A DNA stretch of 32,000 nucleotides from Bellilinea caldifistulae (GTDB lineage Bacteria > Chloroflexota > Anaerolineae > Anaerolineales > Anaerolineaceae): NCBI RefSeq assembly GCF_001306055.1, contig NZ_LGHJ01000016.1:120001-152000 (forward strand), given 5' to 3'. A model generated the notes under the pieces. That model was not told where the DNA came from. It did no database searches and saw nothing but the letters and a program-made list of their open reading frames with translations. The translations under genes were made by a program, and so were the position numbers. Positions 8,261 to 23,866 of the stretch are shown one piece after another. Position 1 is the stretch's first letter; each line of letters starts with the position of its first letter.

Positions 8261-8338
<78 letters not shown>

Positions 8339-8396: not shown

Positions 8397-8804
8397 TTAT
8401 TTCTCGCCTTTGGATTCAAAAAAATTGGTGTAGGCTTTATCCTCATCGAGGATGTGGTTGACCAGCCACTCCTTCAAGAAATTCATCATCTGGACACTCA
8501 GGCCGATTTTGCCCTCCTTGTATTGATTTTTGTAATCCATTACTTGTTGAGTCAGGCGATCATGAGATTCCTTGTGTTGGGTGTATTGAGGATAAGCGTG
8601 CTTGAGCATGAGCGCCTCTTCACTGGAAAAATGCCTGCGAGTATAGTCAACCAGCTCGTCAAGTATTTTTCCCAATTCTACCTGGCCTTTACCGACCTTC
8701 ATGGCTTCGTATAGTTGATTGATCAAGTTGACCAGCTGCTGGTGTTGTTGATCAAATTTGGAAATTTTTACCGAATAACGATCTTCCCACTTAATCAGTG
8801 ACAT
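8397..8804 (-). CDS. Hemerythrin-like metal-binding protein (bacteriohemerythrin)
   Basis: The ORF track gives 8397..8870. I prefer the ATG at 8804 (MSLIKWEDRYSV...), preceded by AGGAGAACAAG. His/Glu/Asp ligand pattern: DQQHQQL, RRHFSSEE, HKESH, WLVNHILDEDK. Confidence 0.8.
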   Translation of the reverse strand: MSLIKWEDRYSVKISKFDQQHQQLVNLINQLYEAMKVGKGQVELGKILDELVDYTRRHFSSEEALMLKHAYPQYTQHKESHDRLTQQVMDYKNQYKEGKIGLSVQMMNFLKEWLVNHILDEDKAYTNFFESKGEK

Positions 8805-8888
8805 CTTGTTCTCCTGTTTGCAATTGTTCATGCTCATCTGAATATAGGGTTTTTGTTGATGGGTATCCATAAATTTGGAGTAAATTTT

Positions 8889-9626
8889 TTAGGGGACAAA
8901 GCCAATCGCATAAAACGTCGGTACGAATAAGACACGTGTTCCCTCCAGCCATGCATGGCGGTCGGCTTTTTCTAGTGCTTCGATTTCTTCGGGTTTGCAA
9001 TAATTTTCCAGGTCTGAGCGGATGACCGACCACTCAAGATCAATCTCCTGCGGATGAGGTTGATCTTTTGTCCATTGAGCAGCCATAACCCCGCTTTCGA
9101 TGTCAATTAACCCCGCCGTCTCGAACCAGGCACGAATTTTTCGACCGGTGAAGGGGTCTGCGCCTTGATCGCGTAATGATTGAATCTGATATTTTCCAAT
9201 CGCACTCAGGGAGGATGGATAATCTATCCTGCCGCCGTAATCCGGTTCAGCCATGGCGATCACCGCGCCACCGCTACGTGTGATGCGAATCATCTCTTGC
9301 AGGACATTTGCTCCATTGACCCACATCAGAAAAAAATGACAAAAGCAATAATCCATGCTCTTCGAGACAAACGGCAGGTAATGAGCATCTGAACAAATCA
9401 GTGAGGCGGATGGCAGCAAAGTCTGAGTGATTTGCAGGCTCGAGAAATCTATATCCAGTCCAAATATACCGTTTTCGCCTGAAAATTCTCGCAATACTGC
9501 GCCGCTACCGCAGCCAACTTCCAATACCCGATTTAAGGGTTGTATTCCGGCTTTTTGGATCAGGTATGCGCGTAGTTGAGCCGTCCACCGGGCCTGTTGT
9601 TGATAGCGTTGATGCCAGTCTATCAT
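8889..9626 (-). CDS. Class I SAM-dependent methyltransferase
   Basis: The ORF track gives 8889..9674. I prefer the ATG at 9626 (MIDWHQRY...), which overlaps the upstream stop as ATGA. Motif I is VLEVGCGSGAVL, with downstream acidic and post-I motifs. Confidence 0.8.
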   Translation of the reverse strand: MIDWHQRYQQQARWTAQLRAYLIQKAGIQPLNRVLEVGCGSGAVLREFSGENGIFGLDIDFSSLQITQTLLPSASLICSDAHYLPFVSKSMDYCFCHFFLMWVNGANVLQEMIRITRSGGAVIAMAEPDYGGRIDYPSSLSAIGKYQIQSLRDQGADPFTGRKIRAWFETAGLIDIESGVMAAQWTKDQPHPQEIDLEWSVIRSDLENYCKPEEIEALEKADRHAWLEGTRVLFVPTFYAIGFVP

Positions 9627-10810
9627 GCTTCGGTCTGATTCAATTTTTGAGCATTTTGCCAGATTGTTGCCCAATCATCGGTGAGGAAATTGCCAAGAAG
9701 AATGGTTTTACCTTGCGCAGGTAGTACATCTCCATCGGGTTCAACGTAAAGCCAGGCGTTGCCAGCGCCGTCAAAATATTCTGCCTGTCCTTCGGTTTGT
9801 AATTCAAGACCGATGGGGTTTAACTCGGAGTAAGGTACTGGTAAGTCCCATACAAGGGACATCTGGTGAGCAAACGCATGCTCCTGCGCTTGTTGAAGGA
9901 TGGGTTTCAAGGAAGGGTCTTCAATCGTAAGACTGAGCGATTTAACATTCAATTCTGCCAGTTTTTCAAGGATTTCGTTCAGCCGATTCTGATTACGAAC
10001 GGAAATGGTCAGATGAACCGTTACAAAAAGGTCAGATGCAATCGAATCTCGGATGGCTTCCCAGCAGTATTCTTCCTGTTCGTCCAGCACAATCATCAAA
10101 TGATCGAGACCTGCCTGAAGGATATCCGAAAGAAATTTATGCTCGGAGAAGCGGTATCCGCTGGTCAGCACACCGGTTACCATTCCTATCCTTTCGGCAA
10201 ATTCAACCAGTTCAATTAGATCGGGGCGTAAAGCCGGTTCACCGCCCGTGAATATCACATGTGGAATGCCAGCGTTCCATGCTTTTTCCAAAATGGTTTG
10301 CCATTCTTTGGTCAGCAATTCCCTCTTTACCCTTTCAAGCGGGGTAGAACCGGTGGTACGGGGGGTAGGGGTAGCATAAGTCAAGGCGCAATCCAGCCGT
10401 AGCGGAGCACTCAACCGACGCTCATGCACATTCACGCGGTCAAATTCCAGATATGTAACCGGATCGAGGTCGGTTGTTTCAATCAAAGTCATCAACCGGT
10501 CACGGAATGAGATGAAATCTTGCCGGACCTGTTCTTTGCTGACCCGATATCGTTTGGATAATTCACTGGCGACTTCTTCTTCAGTATGCTGCTGGATGAG
10601 GTGATAGGCGTACTCTGCCCCCGTCTGATTGAGGTGAAGCACCGTTGAGGCATTGAGGATGAGTACACCGCTCCCATCCCCCTCGATTCGGAGATGAAGA
10701 CGATAGGGAAAGGCGGCTTCGGGTGGGGCAATGAAAGTATAAATCCCCGCTTCCAGTGGTTGGACGGGTTGAAAAATGCGATTGATAGTCTCTCGAATTC
10801 GATTGAACAT
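9623..10810 (-). CDS. Cysteine-less paralog of the adjacent radical SAM/SPASM enzyme (RRE-like N-domain plus degenerate rSAM core; predicted non-catalytic)
   Basis: The ORF track gives 9623..10888. I prefer the ATG at 10810 (MFNRIRETI...), with GAGGTGG upstream. It aligns by eye with the neighbour: GIYTF/GLYSF, RLHLRIEGDGSGVLILNAS/RLHLRIESDQSGTLLINAS, GIPHVIFTGGEPALRPDL/GIPHIVFTGGEPTLRDDL, AGLDH. However, CNNACAHC is replaced by ATPTPRTTGS, and the SPASM cysteines are replaced (AWLYVEPDGDVLPAQ versus MCIEPDGSVLPCQ). Only 2 Cys occur in 395 aa. Confidence 0.8.
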   Translation of the reverse strand: MFNRIRETINRIFQPVQPLEAGIYTFIAPPEAAFPYRLHLRIEGDGSGVLILNASTVLHLNQTGAEYAYHLIQQHTEEEVASELSKRYRVSKEQVRQDFISFRDRLMTLIETTDLDPVTYLEFDRVNVHERRLSAPLRLDCALTYATPTPRTTGSTPLERVKRELLTKEWQTILEKAWNAGIPHVIFTGGEPALRPDLIELVEFAERIGMVTGVLTSGYRFSEHKFLSDILQAGLDHLMIVLDEQEEYCWEAIRDSIASDLFVTVHLTISVRNQNRLNEILEKLAELNVKSLSLTIEDPSLKPILQQAQEHAFAHQMSLVWDLPVPYSELNPIGLELQTEGQAEYFDGAGNAWLYVEPDGDVLPAQGKTILLGNFLTDDWATIWQNAQKLNQTEA

Positions 10811-10824
10811 GGCCACCTCTGCTT

Positions 10825-12201
10825 TTAGTGGATGACATTTGTTGGAGTTTGTAAAGATTCGCGGGCGAGAGGACATCCGCCACCACATTCAACCACTAAT
10901 GCACAATCGTGACATTTGGCGGGTAGATTTCGGCGTTCTCTAAGCGATTGTGCCAGCTCGTGATTCCAGATTTGATCCCACGAGTCGGTGATGATATTTC
11001 CCAACGAACTGTAATAGGATTGACAGGGAAGTACACTGCCATCCGGTTCAATGCACATGTTATAGAGCGCGGCAGTGCAGCCCTTAACACCCAATTCCAT
11101 TTGAACAGGGTCAAAATTGCAGTATTCGGTTGGGGTGTACCAGATTAGGCGTTGGTTGTTTTGGGCGGTTTTGGCGCGGGCAATTTCCAGCAGGGCGGGC
11201 AGTTGATTTTCCGGAATGCCACTATTGACATTTTTGCCACGCCCGGCGTAGATCAGAGCGTTTAATCCCACAGTAGGCACTCCAATTTCTGCCAGAAAAT
11301 CAAGTGTAGCGCTTAAATGAGGTGCATTGTCTTTCAGGAGAGTTGTGTTGGTCATCACAAAAAGCCTGGATTGTAGGGCATTTTTCAAACCATCGAGGGT
11401 TTCCTGCCATGCTCCCTTATGCAATACCATTCGATCGTGAATCTCTGGAATGTGGGACTCAAAAGTGATTTGCACATGATCCAGACCGGCGTCAATCAAT
11501 TGGGAGAGGAAAGAAACATCCTTCAAGCGTCTTCCGTTGGTGTTAATGCCGGTGATTTGTCCATTTTGTTCGGCATGAGCTATCAGCAAAGGCAGATCGT
11601 CGCGAAGGGTAGGCTCGCCTCCTGTAAACACAATATGAGGGATGCCGATTTCCCAAAGTTTATCCAAAACTGAATACCAGAATTGGGTATCTTTTTCTGG
11701 GAATGCACGTGACCGGGCGTTATAACAGTGAGCGCAGGCATTGTTGCACCGGTAAGTAATTGCCAGGTCCATGCGGTACGGCCGGCTGGGATGTTTTGTA
11801 AATGGCGGAATAGTTTCAATTTCCAAATCACAAACCGGACAAACGCCTTCCGGGTTGATCAATGAGCGGAGCTGTTCGACAAACGAAAGGTAGTCCTGAG
11901 TTGCCTGTTGACGGGAAACCTGAAATAACCGCGTCAGCCAGCCAATCGCCTGATGTTCAGGAATTTTACTCAAAGCAAGGTAGGCCATGAGCGCTGCCGA
12001 TGGGTTGAAATGATAAATGCGGCTGGCGTTGATCAGTAATGTTCCGCTCTGATCACTTTCAATGCGTAAATGAAGGCGGGCTTTTCCGCCATTCTCTTCA
12101 ATCAAAAAGGAGTAAAGGCCGGCTGGCGGTGGAAAATGAACTTCCGAGGAGGAAAAAGTTCTGCGCAATTTTTCAATCCAGCGGGTTGAGAGGAAAGACA
12201 T
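10825..12201 (-). CDS. Radical SAM/SPASM-domain enzyme with N-terminal PqqD/RRE-like domain
   Basis: The ORF track gives 10825..12276. I prefer the ATG at 12201 (MSFLSTRWIEK...), with AGGAG 8 nt upstream. The rSAM motif is ITYRCNNACAHCYN (Cx3Cx2C), with GGEP present. The SPASM pattern is GCTAALYNMCIEPDGSVLPC ... CHDCALVVECGGGC. The N-terminal roughly 110 aa resemble PqqD-like peptide-recognition domains. Confidence 0.88.
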   Translation of the reverse strand: MSFLSTRWIEKLRRTFSSSEVHFPPPAGLYSFLIEENGGKARLHLRIESDQSGTLLINASRIYHFNPSAALMAYLALSKIPEHQAIGWLTRLFQVSRQQATQDYLSFVEQLRSLINPEGVCPVCDLEIETIPPFTKHPSRPYRMDLAITYRCNNACAHCYNARSRAFPEKDTQFWYSVLDKLWEIGIPHIVFTGGEPTLRDDLPLLIAHAEQNGQITGINTNGRRLKDVSFLSQLIDAGLDHVQITFESHIPEIHDRMVLHKGAWQETLDGLKNALQSRLFVMTNTTLLKDNAPHLSATLDFLAEIGVPTVGLNALIYAGRGKNVNSGIPENQLPALLEIARAKTAQNNQRLIWYTPTEYCNFDPVQMELGVKGCTAALYNMCIEPDGSVLPCQSYYSSLGNIITDSWDQIWNHELAQSLRERRNLPAKCHDCALVVECGGGCPLARESLQTPTNVIH

Positions 12202-12215
12202 CCTGAATCTCCTGA

Positions 12216-13913
12216 TTACCGTCCACCGCCAGCACAGGCGCAAGCGCAGCCAGCGCAAGCGCAGGCACATGCACAACCTCCGCCCCCTCCTCCGGAACGC
12301 CCGCTATAAGAGGAGGGTTTGGGCGGTGGATTGGTCTTATTCGTGATCCTTTCTGTGAAGGTGTTGACATTGCCTAATACACCGCTAGAGAAGGACTGAA
12401 CGCCTTTGACCATGGAGGCAGCAAAGTCTGAACCGGGCAGTTTCGGTAGAGTGACGCTTCCACCGCCTGTAGGGGTCGGGATAGTGGTTTTTGCCATCCC
12501 GCCGCCACTGGTGGAAGGAGCACTGCGAATTACGGGATCGTAACGCCACCACCACGTGGGAACTCGCACCGGTCCGCTTTGGAAGACTTCCCGTGTTCGG
12601 TCATCCCAACGGCGATCAACCATCGTCCAATCCATGACCTGTTCATAGACATCCGACTTAACTTCGGGTGTTTCGGCGGCGGCAACCTGCTGCCAGGCTT
12701 TTTCCATGATGGTTTTGTAATAATCAATGGTTTCTTTGCGGCTAAAGCCTTTCATTTTTTCTGAAACCGATTTGATCAACCCAATGACGGTATCTTGAAG
12801 TTTCGCTTCTTTCAACTTTTTGTTGGTCTGCTTGAAAGCCTCCAGGAATGTCATCTCGTAGGGTTGGAGATTTTCGGGTAATGGATCACTGATTTTCAAG
12901 ACGAGCGGTTCCCGGCTTTCAACGATGGCAGCCCCTTTTTTCAACACTGAAAACAGGATCATGGTTAACACTTTATCGAGAGGCTGCTCCATCAGGACCG
13001 CGGCTTCTACGGCGGTCAAACCGCGTTTAATGCCATGGCCCTCAACCGCAATTTTGGGCGGCAAATATTGTAATTTGCGCCGATTTGCCGCTACAGCCGA
13101 TAAAATGGGGATAATGAAGAAAAATCCCACAAAGCCAGCTGTGCATAATGTACCAATGATCGCCTCAAAGTCAACTGTGCGAAGATTGGGCGTTTCGGTT
13201 GCGACAACCACCTGAGCAGGTACGAGACGAATGGGGAATGAAGCCCCAAATTTGTAAGGGGTATAGACGTTGGCTTTTTCAGCGTACCACGTGTAATAAA
13301 CCCGACCCTGGTTGTCAAAACCCGACTCGACCGGTTCATTGCTGCCCGGCCAGTTGCCGGATGGGGTATGGTAGCGGGGTTCTTCGGGTTTTAAACCGGT
13401 CGGTAGTACAATGGTGAAATAGTATTCGGTGGTACCGCGAGTGAAATTCCGGTCGAAATTATTTGGAGTAATAACCAGGCTGGCGTACTCTTCGGCTTCT
13501 TGCAGGGTGGATTTACCCAATGCGCGTTCGACTTTTCCAACGTACACATGCAGAGTTCCCGTTTGTCCAGGCTGGATGGCATTACTTCCCAAATGGATTT
13601 CAACACCCGGATTGACATACTCCGAAGGGCGGATGAGGGTGGCTGGCTTTCCGTCAATCTCGGCAGAAATGGATTTTAAGTCGTAGTTTGAATTGGGCAG
13701 ACCAATATCTACGATGTCAATCGCATCCCGGCCGGGCAGGTTTTTGAAGGTAATGGTGTAGTCGAGGCTTACGCTGCCATCTGAATTGACAAAAACAACC
13801 ACCTCTTGTTTGGGAACTTCAAAGGACAGATTTTGGGCATGGACAGGCTGGATGCTCATACCGAGCATCAATGCAATGATCAACCATAAGAAAAAGAGAC
13901 GAAGAGTTCGCAT
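12216..13913 (-). CDS. DUF2207-like membrane protein with C-terminal Gly6-(Cys-Ala)n tail
   Basis: The ORF track gives 12216..14048. I prefer the ATG at 13913 (MRTLRLFFLWLIIALMLGMSIQPVHAQ, a signal peptide), with GGGAGGGTGAG upstream. Layout: beta-rich N-domain, one central TM segment (IIGTLCTAGFVGFFFIIPILSAVAA), a roughly 285-aa predicted cytoplasmic region, then the tail ...SGRSGGGGGGCACACACAGCACACAGGGR*. Confidence 0.85.
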   Translation of the reverse strand: MRTLRLFFLWLIIALMLGMSIQPVHAQNLSFEVPKQEVVVFVNSDGSVSLDYTITFKNLPGRDAIDIVDIGLPNSNYDLKSISAEIDGKPATLIRPSEYVNPGVEIHLGSNAIQPGQTGTLHVYVGKVERALGKSTLQEAEEYASLVITPNNFDRNFTRGTTEYYFTIVLPTGLKPEEPRYHTPSGNWPGSNEPVESGFDNQGRVYYTWYAEKANVYTPYKFGASFPIRLVPAQVVVATETPNLRTVDFEAIIGTLCTAGFVGFFFIIPILSAVAANRRKLQYLPPKIAVEGHGIKRGLTAVEAAVLMEQPLDKVLTMILFSVLKKGAAIVESREPLVLKISDPLPENLQPYEMTFLEAFKQTNKKLKEAKLQDTVIGLIKSVSEKMKGFSRKETIDYYKTIMEKAWQQVAAAETPEVKSDVYEQVMDWTMVDRRWDDRTREVFQSGPVRVPTWWWRYDPVIRSAPSTSGGGMAKTTIPTPTGGGSVTLPKLPGSDFAASMVKGVQSFSSGVLGNVNTFTERITNKTNPPPKPSSYSGRSGGGGGGCACACACAGCACACAGGGR

Positions 13914-13927
13914 CTCACCCTCCCGGC

Positions 13928-14290
13928 TTACCATTTCGGTTCCTCGGTCAACTGATAGGTTGTGTGACAGTAAGGGCAGGTGACTACGGGCGCTCCGGCG
14001 ACCATTTTGATGTCTTCCGGCTTTAAAGTTCCACCACAGGAACGACATTTGATGGCATCCATATTTACATTTCCGGGCAGATCAATTTTCAGAGTAACGT
14101 TGGTTTCGTCGGGTTTGGCTGATTTTCGCGTAGCCAAGAATACCAGCGCTAAGCCAATCCCCACCGTTATAACCCCAATCGGAATCCAACCCAATGAACC
14201 CTGATCGCCGGTAGAACCCCAGATGAACAACACCCCGAAAAAGATCAAAATTCCGCCGACGATCAAAGCAATAATTTTCCATGCGCTCAT
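13928..14290 (-). CDS. Small membrane protein (2 TM) with C-terminal zinc ribbon
   Basis: The track start at 14302 is TTG. I prefer the ATG at 14290 (MSAWKIIALIVGG...), preceded by GGAGGTGACC. There are two hydrophobic helices, then CRSCGG...CPYCHTTY. Confidence 0.75.
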   Translation of the reverse strand: MSAWKIIALIVGGILIFFGVLFIWGSTGDQGSLGWIPIGVITVGIGLALVFLATRKSAKPDETNVTLKIDLPGNVNMDAIKCRSCGGTLKPEDIKMVAGAPVVTCPYCHTTYQLTEEPKW

Positions 14291-14438: not shown

Positions 14439-17702
<3,264 letters not shown>

Positions 17703-17742: not shown

Positions 17743-17758
17743 TGGAGAGGTGGAGATG

Positions 17759-18141
17759 GCGGGAATCGAACCCGCGTCCGAAAGATTAGACCCACGAACC
17801 TCTACGAGCGTAGTTGGTCTTTGTTCTCACGGTGGATGCGCTGACCAACAGAACACATCCACCGCCAGCCGCTCGGACCCGAAAGTCCTCTTTCGCATTC
17901 TGCACGGCGAAGAATGCGGCAGCCTGACTTTGTCACGCCTGTTCTGCTACCGGTCAGGCAGCGGAGCAGACAGACGTGGCCTCACGAGGAGACCATTTGC
18001 GCTCAGCTCGGCTTAGGCAGCCAGAGGAAGAGCAGCGTAGTTTGTGCGATTGGCACTTATTTTTTGTGCTGATTTTACGAGGTCCGCACCTCTCGGCTCG
18101 CAGTCCGGGATCAGCCTCTCCCGTCGAGACCGTTCATCCCC
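17759..18141 (-). ncRNA. ssrA: tmRNA (ssrA), one-piece
   Basis: The reverse strand 5' end reads GGGGATGAACGGTCTCGACGGGAG. The 3' end reads GGACGCGGGTTCGATTCCCGCCATCTCCACC, a tRNA-Ala-like T-arm and acceptor. The internal tag frame at 18054..18013 follows AAAAAATAAGT and reads GCC AAT CGC ACA AAC TAC GCT GCT CTT CCT CTG GCT GCC TAA, giving ANRTNYAALPLAA*. Confidence 0.9.
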
Positions 18142-23785: not shown

Positions 23786-23792
23786 GTTGCTG

Positions 23793-23866
23793 TGGGCGGA
23801 ACAGGACTCGAACCTGCGACCCCATCCTTGTAAGGGATGTGCTCTAACCTACTGAGCTATCCGCCA
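23793..23866 (-). tRNA. tRNA-Val (anticodon TAC), with U1 opposite C72
   Basis: The reverse strand reads TGGCGGA-TA-GCTC-AGTAGGTTA-GAGC-A-CATCC-CTTACAA-GGATG-GGGTC-GCAGG-TTCGAGT-CCTGT-TCCGCCC-A. It is a good cloverleaf except that the first acceptor pair is T:C. Confidence 0.8.

Follow-up and report, generated by a model that had tools for sequence, protein, structure and literature searches.

A conserved Cys-Ala tail on a membrane protein of Bellilinea caldifistulae, a probable target of the radical SAM/SPASM enzyme encoded next to it

The window, a 32,000-nucleotide stretch of the Bellilinea caldifistulae genome (Anaerolineae, Chloroflexota; contig NZ_LGHJ01000016.1, positions 120,001 to 152,000, forward strand), carries on its minus strand five genes arranged head to tail. 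They code for a small zinc-ribbon protein (ZnR), a membrane protein with a Cys-Ala repeat at its extreme C-terminus (the tail protein), two radical S-adenosylmethionine (rSAM) proteins, named here rSAM1 and rSAM2, and a methyltransferase (Table 1). The product of the tail-protein gene is annotated, with 100% identity to a hypothetical protein of B. caldifistulae, and the databases list the cassette products under generic names (hypothetical protein, radical SAM/SPASM domain-containing protein). The cassette is tightly packed, with 14-nt gaps and one ATGA overlap, and has no room for a small precursor gene; the genes that follow the tail-protein gene are translationally coupled. The rSAM1 ATG lies 14 nt past the stop of the tail-protein gene, with an AGGAG upstream (TAA-TCAGGAGATTCAGG-ATG). 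For the methyltransferase the start is probably the ATG given in Table 1, the TTG at 9674 chosen by the open reading frame (ORF) caller being probably too far upstream. A 483-aa ORF with a TTG start (10825-12276, minus strand) was rejected as a caller artefact: its N-terminus, MCMCLRLRWLRLRLCWRW, is the repeat read in a shifted frame, and rSAM1 starts at its ATG at 12201. A scan of the operon for promoters and terminators gave counts no higher than in shuffled sequence.

Table 1 Features of the Bellilinea window and recurrence of the cassette genes among the 73 genome loci with a tail ORF. RRE, RiPP recognition element (RiPPs, peptides that ribosomes make and that are modified after translation); TM, transmembrane.
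Feature	Coordinates	Strand	Description	Loci (of 73)
Tail-protein gene	12216-13913	-	565 aa; ATG at 13913 (MRTLRLFF...), TAA at 12218-12216	
C-terminal tail, G6-(CA)4-G-(CA)3-GGGR	12219-12293	-	residues 541-565; Cys-Ala repeat = 547-561	
TNPxP motif (527-531) and variable Gly/Ser/Pro-rich linker (to residue 546)	12276-12335	-	joins the folded cytoplasmic domain to the Cys-Ala repeat (predicted)	
ZnR gene	13928-14290	-	120 aa; first cassette gene; two TM helices, cytoplasmic zinc-ribbon/rubredoxin-like knuckles CRSCGG ... CPYC	59
rSAM1 gene	10825-12201	-	458 aa; PqqD/RRE-like N-domain, radical-SAM core CNNACAHC (CxxxCxxC), SPASM; product on record	62 (active, both Cys motifs; within fetched flanks)
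rSAM2 gene	9623-10810	-	395 aa; PqqD domain and radical-SAM-like barrel; 2 Cys in total, without CxxxCxxC and SPASM cysteines	43 (dead rSAM paralogue)
Methyltransferase gene	8889-9626	-	class I SAM-dependent, Methyltransf_11/25; ATG probably at 9626, sharing ATGA with the rSAM2 stop	46 (archaeal ones included)
Bacteriohemerythrin gene	8397-8870	-	161 bits; downstream of the cassette	
tRNA-Pro(GGG) gene	8263-8338	-	follows the bacteriohemerythrin gene	
LigA and PUA/SAM-methyltransferase genes	14468-17702	+	LigA, NAD-dependent DNA ligase; divergent from the cassette	
tmRNA gene	17748-18141	-	Rfam 180 bits; tag peptide ANRTNYAALPLAA	
tRNA-Val(TAC) gene	23792-23866	-		

The tail has the layout GGGGGG-CACACACA-G-CACACA-GGGR. 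The last 25 codons of the gene (12293..12219 on the minus strand; GGA GGA GGG GGC GGA GGT TGT GCA TGT GCC TGC GCT TGC GCT GGC TGC GCT TGC GCC TGT GCT GGC GGT GGA CGG) translate to GGGGGGCACACACAGCACACAGGGR and are followed by the stop, and the C-terminal tryptic peptide of the protein is SGGGGGGCACACACAGCACACAGGGR. Seven of the eight Cys lie in the tail (residues 547, 549, 551, 553, 556, 558 and 560), while the eighth, Cys257, sits in the sole internal hydrophobic helix (residues ~250-276). The codon use of the tail is mixed (Cys: TGT three times, TGC four times; Ala: GCA once, GCC twice, GCT four times), and Tandem Repeats Finder recognized a weak, imperfect 6-nt array with a score of 32 (default threshold 50) and 72% matches. 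The mixed codons and the weak, sub-threshold array argue that the tail is no clean DNA microsatellite. A sequence-only reading of the window had described the repeat, the seven of eight Cys and the position of the remaining one in the TM helix, accurately in every particular. It had also taken the mixed synonymous codons as a sign of maintenance at the protein level, with which the genome comparison below agrees.

The sequence-only reading had proposed to look among orthologues for tail loss or for random low-complexity ends. A search of ~5.8 billion proteins gave 4851 matches, from which the best 120 (52%-100% identity) were inspected. All 120 ended in (CA)n...AGGGR. The stretch CACACACAGCACACAGGGR was unchanged in 117 of them, in part preceded directly by one more CA or Cys; the other three had a shortened tail or one-residue variants. 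The Gly/Ser linker directly upstream of the tail varied freely in the same set. An exhaustive HMMER search of 1.84 billion cluster representatives (50% identity) found 856 clusters, 290 of them at E <= 1e-30. The tail was present in 116 of the best 149 representatives, and the 33 without it look like frameshifted reads or fragments from contig ends. In an alignment of 81 sequences (28-71% identity) nine columns were invariant, eight of them within the tail. As judged from these alignments, no other part of the family is conserved as strongly as the tail, and its Cys-Ala pattern, which recurs in every full-length homologue examined, is far beyond chance.

Relatives at 26-63% identity were found at 75 loci in a GTDB scan with one genome per species. 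The bacterial hosts belonged to Chloroflexota, Acidobacteriota, Aminicenantes, Planctomycetota, Myxococcota/delta-proteobacteria, Hydrogenedentes and Sabulitectum, and the archaeal hosts to Heimdall- and Hodarchaeota, Methanomassiliicoccales, Thermoplasmatota and Nanoarchaeia. Bathyarchaeia, Promethearchaeota and Eremiobacterota joined the list through additional look-ups. At overall protein identities of 52-100% the tail stayed the same, and down to 27% it was nearly so. It occurred as (CA)4G(CA)3, (CA)3G(CA)3, (CA)3G(CA)4, (CA)5-6 and, in Bathyarchaeia, CVCACANCACACACVSCACACAHGGAR; almost all tails ended in GGGR or GG(A)R. Between the Cys, the residues A, V, H, N, D, S and T were tolerated, the Cys itself being invariable, and the residue before each Cys was G, A, V or S in nearly all tails. 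The 74 genome tails had 74 distinct DNA sequences and encoded only nine peptides, indicating strong purifying selection on the tail peptide. These data bear directly on the possibility that the tail is functionless low-complexity drift or a slipped microsatellite. The weak 6-nt periodicity of the tail DNA would suit such an origin, to which the mixed codons, the nine peptides from 74 DNA sequences and the near-identity at low protein identity are opposed. The conservation data refute it, and we give it next to no credence.

The tail can also be found without reference to the rest of the protein. A metagenome scan with the DNA pattern of CACACAGGG(R)-stop alone recovered 121 tail ORFs in 120 loci, and all 121 belonged to the tail-protein family. 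No stand-alone short peptide with a Cys-Ala core, which would have been proof of a RiPP origin, was found among the 120 metagenome matches. The pattern occurs solely on ~500-650-aa proteins of one family.

A few tails deserve separate mention. At one metagenome locus (L161:1114-1305, minus strand), a 63-aa ORF ending in ...TNPPPVRASSGHSGGGGGYSCACACAGGGR, with three Cys only, looks like a truncated or decayed family member and not like a stand-alone peptide. Among the genome loci, two tail-bearing paralogues stand in tandem at the (CA)3G(CA)4-type locus L049 (5052-8833); tandem tail paralogues were also seen in the metagenome loci L083, L089, L092, L113 and L144, and the tail matches in tandem loci were ~1.9-2.3 kb apart. 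In the Bathyarchaeota sequence CP070659.1 (L199:4929-4931) there is an in-frame TGA where relatives have a Cys codon: the tail reads ...RCVCA[TGA]ASCACACACVSCACACAGGGAR-TAA, against CVCA-C-AN-CACACACVS... in L202 and L204. This TGA is the sole case among ~200 loci and could reflect a Sec/Cys pair, a pseudogene or a sequencing error; no Rfam match resembling a selenocysteine insertion sequence was found near it. The 'CLCLCRLRL' ends of some frameshifted database entries are an out-of-frame reading of the Cys-Ala repeat.

The AlphaFold2 (AF2) model of the tail protein (predicted local distance difference test, pLDDT, 87) has a signal peptide (~1-26), a beta-sandwich ectodomain (31-227), a single TM helix (~249-281), and a cytoplasmic part with a winged-helix-like module (301-341) and helices, closing with a helical hairpin (494-527). 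Residues 540-565 have a pLDDT <50, and the tail is therefore predicted to be disordered. The order of the parts is that of a type-I-like membrane protein. In the window protein the motif NRRK follows directly C-terminal to the TM helix. Within the 15 residues flanking the TM helix, the mean number of Lys plus Arg was 1.0 before and 3.8 after it, with an excess after it in 71 of 81 members. By the positive-inside rule, this places the C-terminal half and the tail in the cytoplasm. Thus the tail is predicted to be cytoplasmic and tethered by a disordered Gly/Ser linker, within reach of an rSAM enzyme, a point for which the sequence-only reading had suggested topology prediction. The linker follows the TNPxP motif, of which T527, N528, P529 and P531 were invariant in one homologue alignment (A1). 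From TNPxP to the first Cys it is mostly 13-22 residues long and consists of 34% G, 27% S and 11% P (339 tails).

A 15-residue strip with a mean Kyte-Doolittle value of 1.98 might also be a short hydrophobic C-terminal anchor or a re-entrant segment closed by the terminal Arg. The order of Gly-rich spacer, hydrophobic stretch and basic end superficially resembles C-terminal sorting signals, such as PEP-CTERM and PGF-CTERM. Fifteen residues are too short to span a bilayer, AF2 predicts no helix in the tail, and the cassette has no sortase-type gene. Membrane anchors tolerate hydrophobic swaps, whereas more than 300 tails are free of L, I and F and keep the strict Cys alternation. We consider an anchor very unlikely.

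With respect to its family relations, the tail protein gave no match above cut-off in Pfam or NCBIfam. TIGR04222 reached 18.2 bits (cut-off 43), covering only the winged-helix-like region after the TM helix. The window protein had no DUF2207 match in Pfam, the gathering score not being reached; weak DUF2207_C matches were found in seven of 81 members (best E = 1.2e-4; in L061 13 bits, against a gathering score of 33). By these scores the tail protein is only a remote relative of DUF2207/TIGR04222. Searches of PDB sequences were empty, both with the single sequence and with the 81-sequence profile. Using Foldseek with the full model, the top matches were ribophorin I of the human oligosaccharyltransferase (OST) complex (8b6l_O, 6s7o_E; E = 9e-9, TM-score ~0.27), and the ectodomain also resembled the N-domain of M1 aminopeptidases. 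The likeness to ribophorin I consists in the succession of beta-sandwich, single TM helix and cytosolic helical domain, and the match of the overall layout is loose. It is a fold-level likeness only, with no Pfam Ribophorin_I match in bacterial or Asgard members. When the cytoplasmic domain was modelled by itself (pLDDT 80), it had no PDB fold match at E <1.

To follow the cassette across genomes, the window proteins were compared by phmmer with the ORFs of the 75 genome loci, and the counts in Table 1 refer to the 73 loci with a tail ORF. Among the 11 loci that had no active rSAM1, two had the gene split by frameshifts (L021, L036) and four ended at a contig edge (L031, L040, L063, L071), leaving five real exceptions. 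A rSAM1 homologue was present in all 25 metagenome loci with enough flank. In the reverse direction, seven rSAM1 orthologues were chosen from a search that used the Heimdallarchaeum enzyme as query, and six of them had a tail gene within 5 kb. The gene order depended on the lineage while the gene set was kept: ZnR-rSAM1-rSAM1'-tail-methyltransferase is the Planctomycete-type order, in which rSAM1' has the SPASM motif and no CxxxCxxC, and (ZnR)-tail-rSAM1-methyltransferase is the archaeal one. Between Bellilinea and Heimdallarchaeum, rSAM1 was 43% and the tail protein 29% identical, the tail being essentially the same. The partnership between the tail and the rSAM/SPASM enzyme is near-obligate, spans two domains of life and persists through rearranged gene orders. 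ZnR, which is on record as a 120-aa product and has no Pfam or NCBIfam model, was missing from the Heimdallarchaeota loci. Its C-terminus (C..CGG-x19-CPYC-x3-YQLTEEPKW-COOH) was conserved in 57 orthologues; archaeal members have EEP[KL]W. No MNIO or DUF692 gene occurred in any annotated neighbourhood, no protease or exporter was part of the cassette, and no short leader-core precursor peptide, the defining feature of a RiPP, was found near rSAM1.

The partnership also bears on another explanation, namely that the tail is an unmodified metal- or Fe-S-binding strip of the metallothionein kind, whose neighbours act elsewhere or exchange metal, sulfur or electrons with it. The CxCxC spacing and ~7 Cys per ~15-25 residues are shared with metallothioneins, and 7-10 Cys at i, i+2 spacing are classic of their Cu(I)/Zn/Cd-thiolate clusters. 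It would also fit that the residue between the Cys varies while the Cys does not, that the tail is disordered in the apo model, and that the tail protein is encoded with no rSAM gene close by at a few loci. Unlike in metallothioneins, the strip is here appended to a large membrane protein, has a near-obligate rSAM neighbour, and keeps its Ala positions and the terminal AGGGR fixed. Such a strip leaves these near-invariant residues unexplained, as it does the presence of an RRE-bearing rSAM/SPASM enzyme as the most faithful neighbour in two domains of life and in rearranged orders, and the cassette has no metal transporter or chaperone gene. On balance, an unmodified strip seems unlikely.

The architecture of rSAM1 is, by its domain matches, that of RiPP maturases. 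In Pfam it matched Radical_SAM (84 bits), SPASM (46 bits) and PqqD (21.1 bits). A PqqD match at E <= 0.01, N-terminal, was found in six of nine bacterial and archaeal orthologues tested, three of them above the gathering score (L047, L061 and L062, 26.5-29.9 bits). Every rSAM1 orthologue had the CxxxCxxC and CxxCx5Cx3C motifs, and all had the SPASM motif CHDCALVVECGGGC or its equivalents. The best relatives in the PDB were SkfB (2e-16) and PqqE (9e-15), and CteB was also matched; no chain of an anaerobic sulfatase-maturing enzyme (anSME) was among the PDB matches. The second rSAM protein, rSAM2, which NCBI names 'PqqD family peptide modification chaperone', reached 28.9 bits with PqqD, above the gathering score. 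Its Chloroflexi-type orthologues had 1-4 Cys in nearly all cases (nine in one over-extended ORF call) and neither motif in any. The second paralogue of the Planctomycete type (L048, L049, L052, L069, L074) had lost CxxxCxxC and kept CxxCx5Cx3C, and the archaeal loci had no second rSAM paralogue. Going by the missing cysteines, rSAM2 is presumably a non-catalytic partner or chaperone, and we infer that rSAM2 or the SPASM-only paralogue serves as a non-catalytic recognition partner.

The PDB matches of rSAM1 also included the GDGT/MAS synthase (3e-10). This raises the alternative that the tail is a carrier arm, on whose Cys the rSAM enzyme would attach or build a non-peptide group (a membrane lipid chain, a cofactor precursor or a metallocluster), with the protein as a scaffold. 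In its favour, the flexible linker holds the tail near the membrane, rSAM/SPASM enzymes make C-S and C-C bonds to unactivated carbons, and the cassette has a methyltransferase, as is common in small-molecule pathways. Against it, rSAM1 resembles the lipid synthase in the generic rSAM core only, the PqqD/RRE domain serves to recognize peptides, and the cassette has no conserved genes for lipid, cofactor or cluster biosynthesis. A carrier role is in our view improbable.

Taken together, it is probable that the tail is a target of the rSAM enzyme. This reading is based on the invariant, family-specific strip, its predicted cytoplasmic and linker-tethered position, the partnership with rSAM1 and the lack of a small precursor gene. 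The sequence-only reading had noticed that the tail adjoins a SPASM maturase, a link strengthened by the RRE-like N-domain and by the pairing in bacterial phyla and archaea. From this it had suggested a modification core, which gains support, the tail being kept among orthologues and predicted to be cytoplasmic. It had further called for a database search for C-terminal repeats of this kind and their neighbours, and this led to a single family with a recurrent rSAM partner in genomes and metagenomes.

We propose the following course for the modification. The RRE domain(s) would bind to the tail protein, with the TNPxP segment, its surroundings or the cytoplasmic domain as the probable docking site, and the linker would guide the tail into the active site of the rSAM enzyme, where the 5'-deoxyadenosyl radical would abstract a hydrogen from the Cys C-beta or from a neighbouring residue, while the auxiliary SPASM cluster might ligate the thiolate. 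The outcome could be thioethers from the Cys sulfur to a carbon of the flanking Ala/Gly (sactionine/ranthionine-type), or an SbtM-type oxidation of each small-residue-Cys unit to a 5-thiooxazole; by analogy with characterized enzymes, either chemistry taken singly is a tentative suggestion at most. The methyltransferase may then tailor the product. The modified strip would probably stay tethered at the inner membrane face, where it would bind metal or take part in redox reactions; the lack of a protease or exporter in the cassette suggests that the product is not released from the protein.

Several observations weigh against modification of the tail. The would-be substrate is a 565-aa membrane protein and not a short leader-core peptide, and the stretch directly before the linker has a predicted fold (the helical hairpin 494-527, pLDDT ~90), unlike a free leader. 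A bare CxCxC strip could bind metal unmodified. The PqqD score of rSAM1 in the window is lower than the gathering score of 23.4. Furthermore, rSAM1 is not an equivalog of any characterized NCBIfam family (best score 119 bits, against cut-offs of 265-725 for the 25 best listed families), and among its top matches there, tetrapyrrole enzymes (NirJ2, AhbC/D) are as prominent as peptide maturases. Four of the five real exceptions (L043, L044, L059, L076) have a tail gene without any rSAM gene within ~7 kb, and the fifth (L026) is without an active one; conversely, the rSAM1 orthologue of L201 has no tail gene on its 8.5-kb contig. 

Known systems offer likenesses on several sides. SbtM, a rSAM/SPASM enzyme, converts Gly-Cys/Sec to a thio(seleno)oxazole by hydrogen abstraction at C-beta, keeping a metal-binding thiol(ate) (PMC9204691). 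The Bellilinea pair would resemble SbtM and SbtA if the rSAM/SPASM enzyme acts on the Cys, which follow a small residue in nearly all tails. TIGR04082 weakly matches rSAM1, and the TGA at a Cys position in L199 might recall the Sec sites, with no SECIS-like element detected. The pair differs in the score, 63 bits against a cut-off of 350, and in the substrate, SbtA being a short peptide with one or two Gly-Cys/Sec sites, compared with 7-10 alternating Cys on a membrane protein here. The combination of RRE, rSAM and SPASM beside a Cys-rich, often repetitive core is shared with SkfB, AlbA, CteB/SCIFF and PapB. The substrates of sacti- and ranthipeptide enzymes, in contrast, are short leader-core peptides, usually cleaved and exported, whereas the cassette has no small ORF, protease or exporter. 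To our knowledge, an Ala/Gly acceptor one residue from the Cys would give a ring size not known among this class. Haft's CXXX-repeat and ACGX-repeat systems are reportedly further cases of rSAM-associated Cys-rich repeat cores.

For a Cys-rich tail on a membrane protein, the closest parallel lies outside the rSAM enzymes. For TIGR04222 membrane proteins whose C-tails are rich in Gly, Ser and Cys, modification by MNIO (DUF692) enzymes has been proposed, and a subset is paired with these enzymes genetically (PMC12452194). MNIO enzymes form 5-thiooxazoles in copper-binding bufferins (PMC12452194, PMC12538549). Both systems have a membrane protein with an unstructured, low-complexity, Cys-rich C-tail proposed for RiPP-type modification, and there is the weak similarity after the TM helix. 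The Bellilinea family, in contrast, has an O2-independent rSAM/SPASM enzyme where MNIO is O2-dependent, and a tail that is predicted to be cytoplasmic and is invariant, whereas TIGR04222 tails are periplasmic and highly diverse. Its hosts, archaea among them, belong to largely anaerobic lineages, and the tail protein scores below the TIGR04222 cut-off. If the product were thiooxazoles, the cassette would resemble an O2-independent analogue of the MNIO/TIGR04222 pairing, a view that fits the largely anaerobic hosts and the weak TIGR04222/DUF2207_C similarity.

Less close are the cofactor maturases and the sulfatase-maturating enzymes. PqqE is the second-best PDB match and one of the top NCBIfam matches, and PqqE/PqqD and MftC/MftB likewise have a separate PqqD-bearing partner and a core at the extreme C-terminus. 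Their cores are Glu/Tyr or Val-Tyr and their products are excised soluble cofactors, unlike the tail, and the partner here is a whole degenerate rSAM paralogue, not a PqqD or MftB protein. An anSME is a rSAM/SPASM enzyme that oxidizes Cys C-beta on a full-length protein. Its target (C/S)-x-(P/A)-x-R is absent from the tail, as no Cys in CACACACAGCACACAGGGR has an R at +4, and we know of no RRE in anSME.

The remaining features of the window lie on both sides of the cassette (Table 1). The bacteriohemerythrin gene, on the same strand, was considered as a further cassette member and rejected, since neither the two annotated Anaerolineae loci nor the genome loci surveyed by phmmer have it beside the cassette. 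The position of the LigA and PUA/SAM-methyltransferase genes was kept in Thermanaerothrix and in another Anaerolineae contig and was absent outside the class, pointing to local synteny. The short ORFs that the caller placed at 17.6-18.1 kb, on either strand, arise from the tmRNA gene and are artefacts.

The RRE-dependent rSAM/SPASM maturation of a Cys-rich core is of a known kind. New are the large membrane protein as presumed substrate, the strictly alternating invariant core, the dead-paralogue partner and the distribution across domains. Radical-SAM/SPASM maturases are known mainly for small secreted peptides, while rSAM1 seems to have a large membrane protein's tail as its dedicated target. 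Full-text literature searches for the Cys-Ala motif gave only DNA primers or generic rSAM papers, and those linking the host taxa with SPASM and RiPP gave nothing relevant.

The host lineages of the family are largely anaerobic. In a bolder version of the proposal, drawn by analogy and in our eyes rather doubtful, the four-to-five-gene cassette would turn a fixed (small-residue-Cys)7-10 strip, located at the cytosolic end of a ribophorin-like membrane protein, into a chain of thiooxazoles or a ladder of adjacent thioethers. It would be the anaerobic rSAM counterpart of MNIO/TIGR04222-bufferin chemistry, yielding a ribosomally encoded, membrane-tethered poly-thiolate metallophore or redox element, perhaps with a selenocysteine version, that Chloroflexi, Planctomycetes, Bathyarchaeia, Methanomassiliicoccales and Asgard archaea would have in common.

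Should the tail be modified, this would be a new class of post-translational chemistry that acts on alternating Cys within a protein, and one that is easily testable, as the 19-residue invariant peptide and one enzyme should be enough. A widespread 'dark' cassette of anaerobes would thereby gain a function, and the recently proposed MNIO/TIGR04222 pairing an O2-independent parallel. The presence of the family in Heimdall-, Hod- and Promethearchaeia, together with the ribophorin I-like layout of the tail protein, adds an evolutionary angle.

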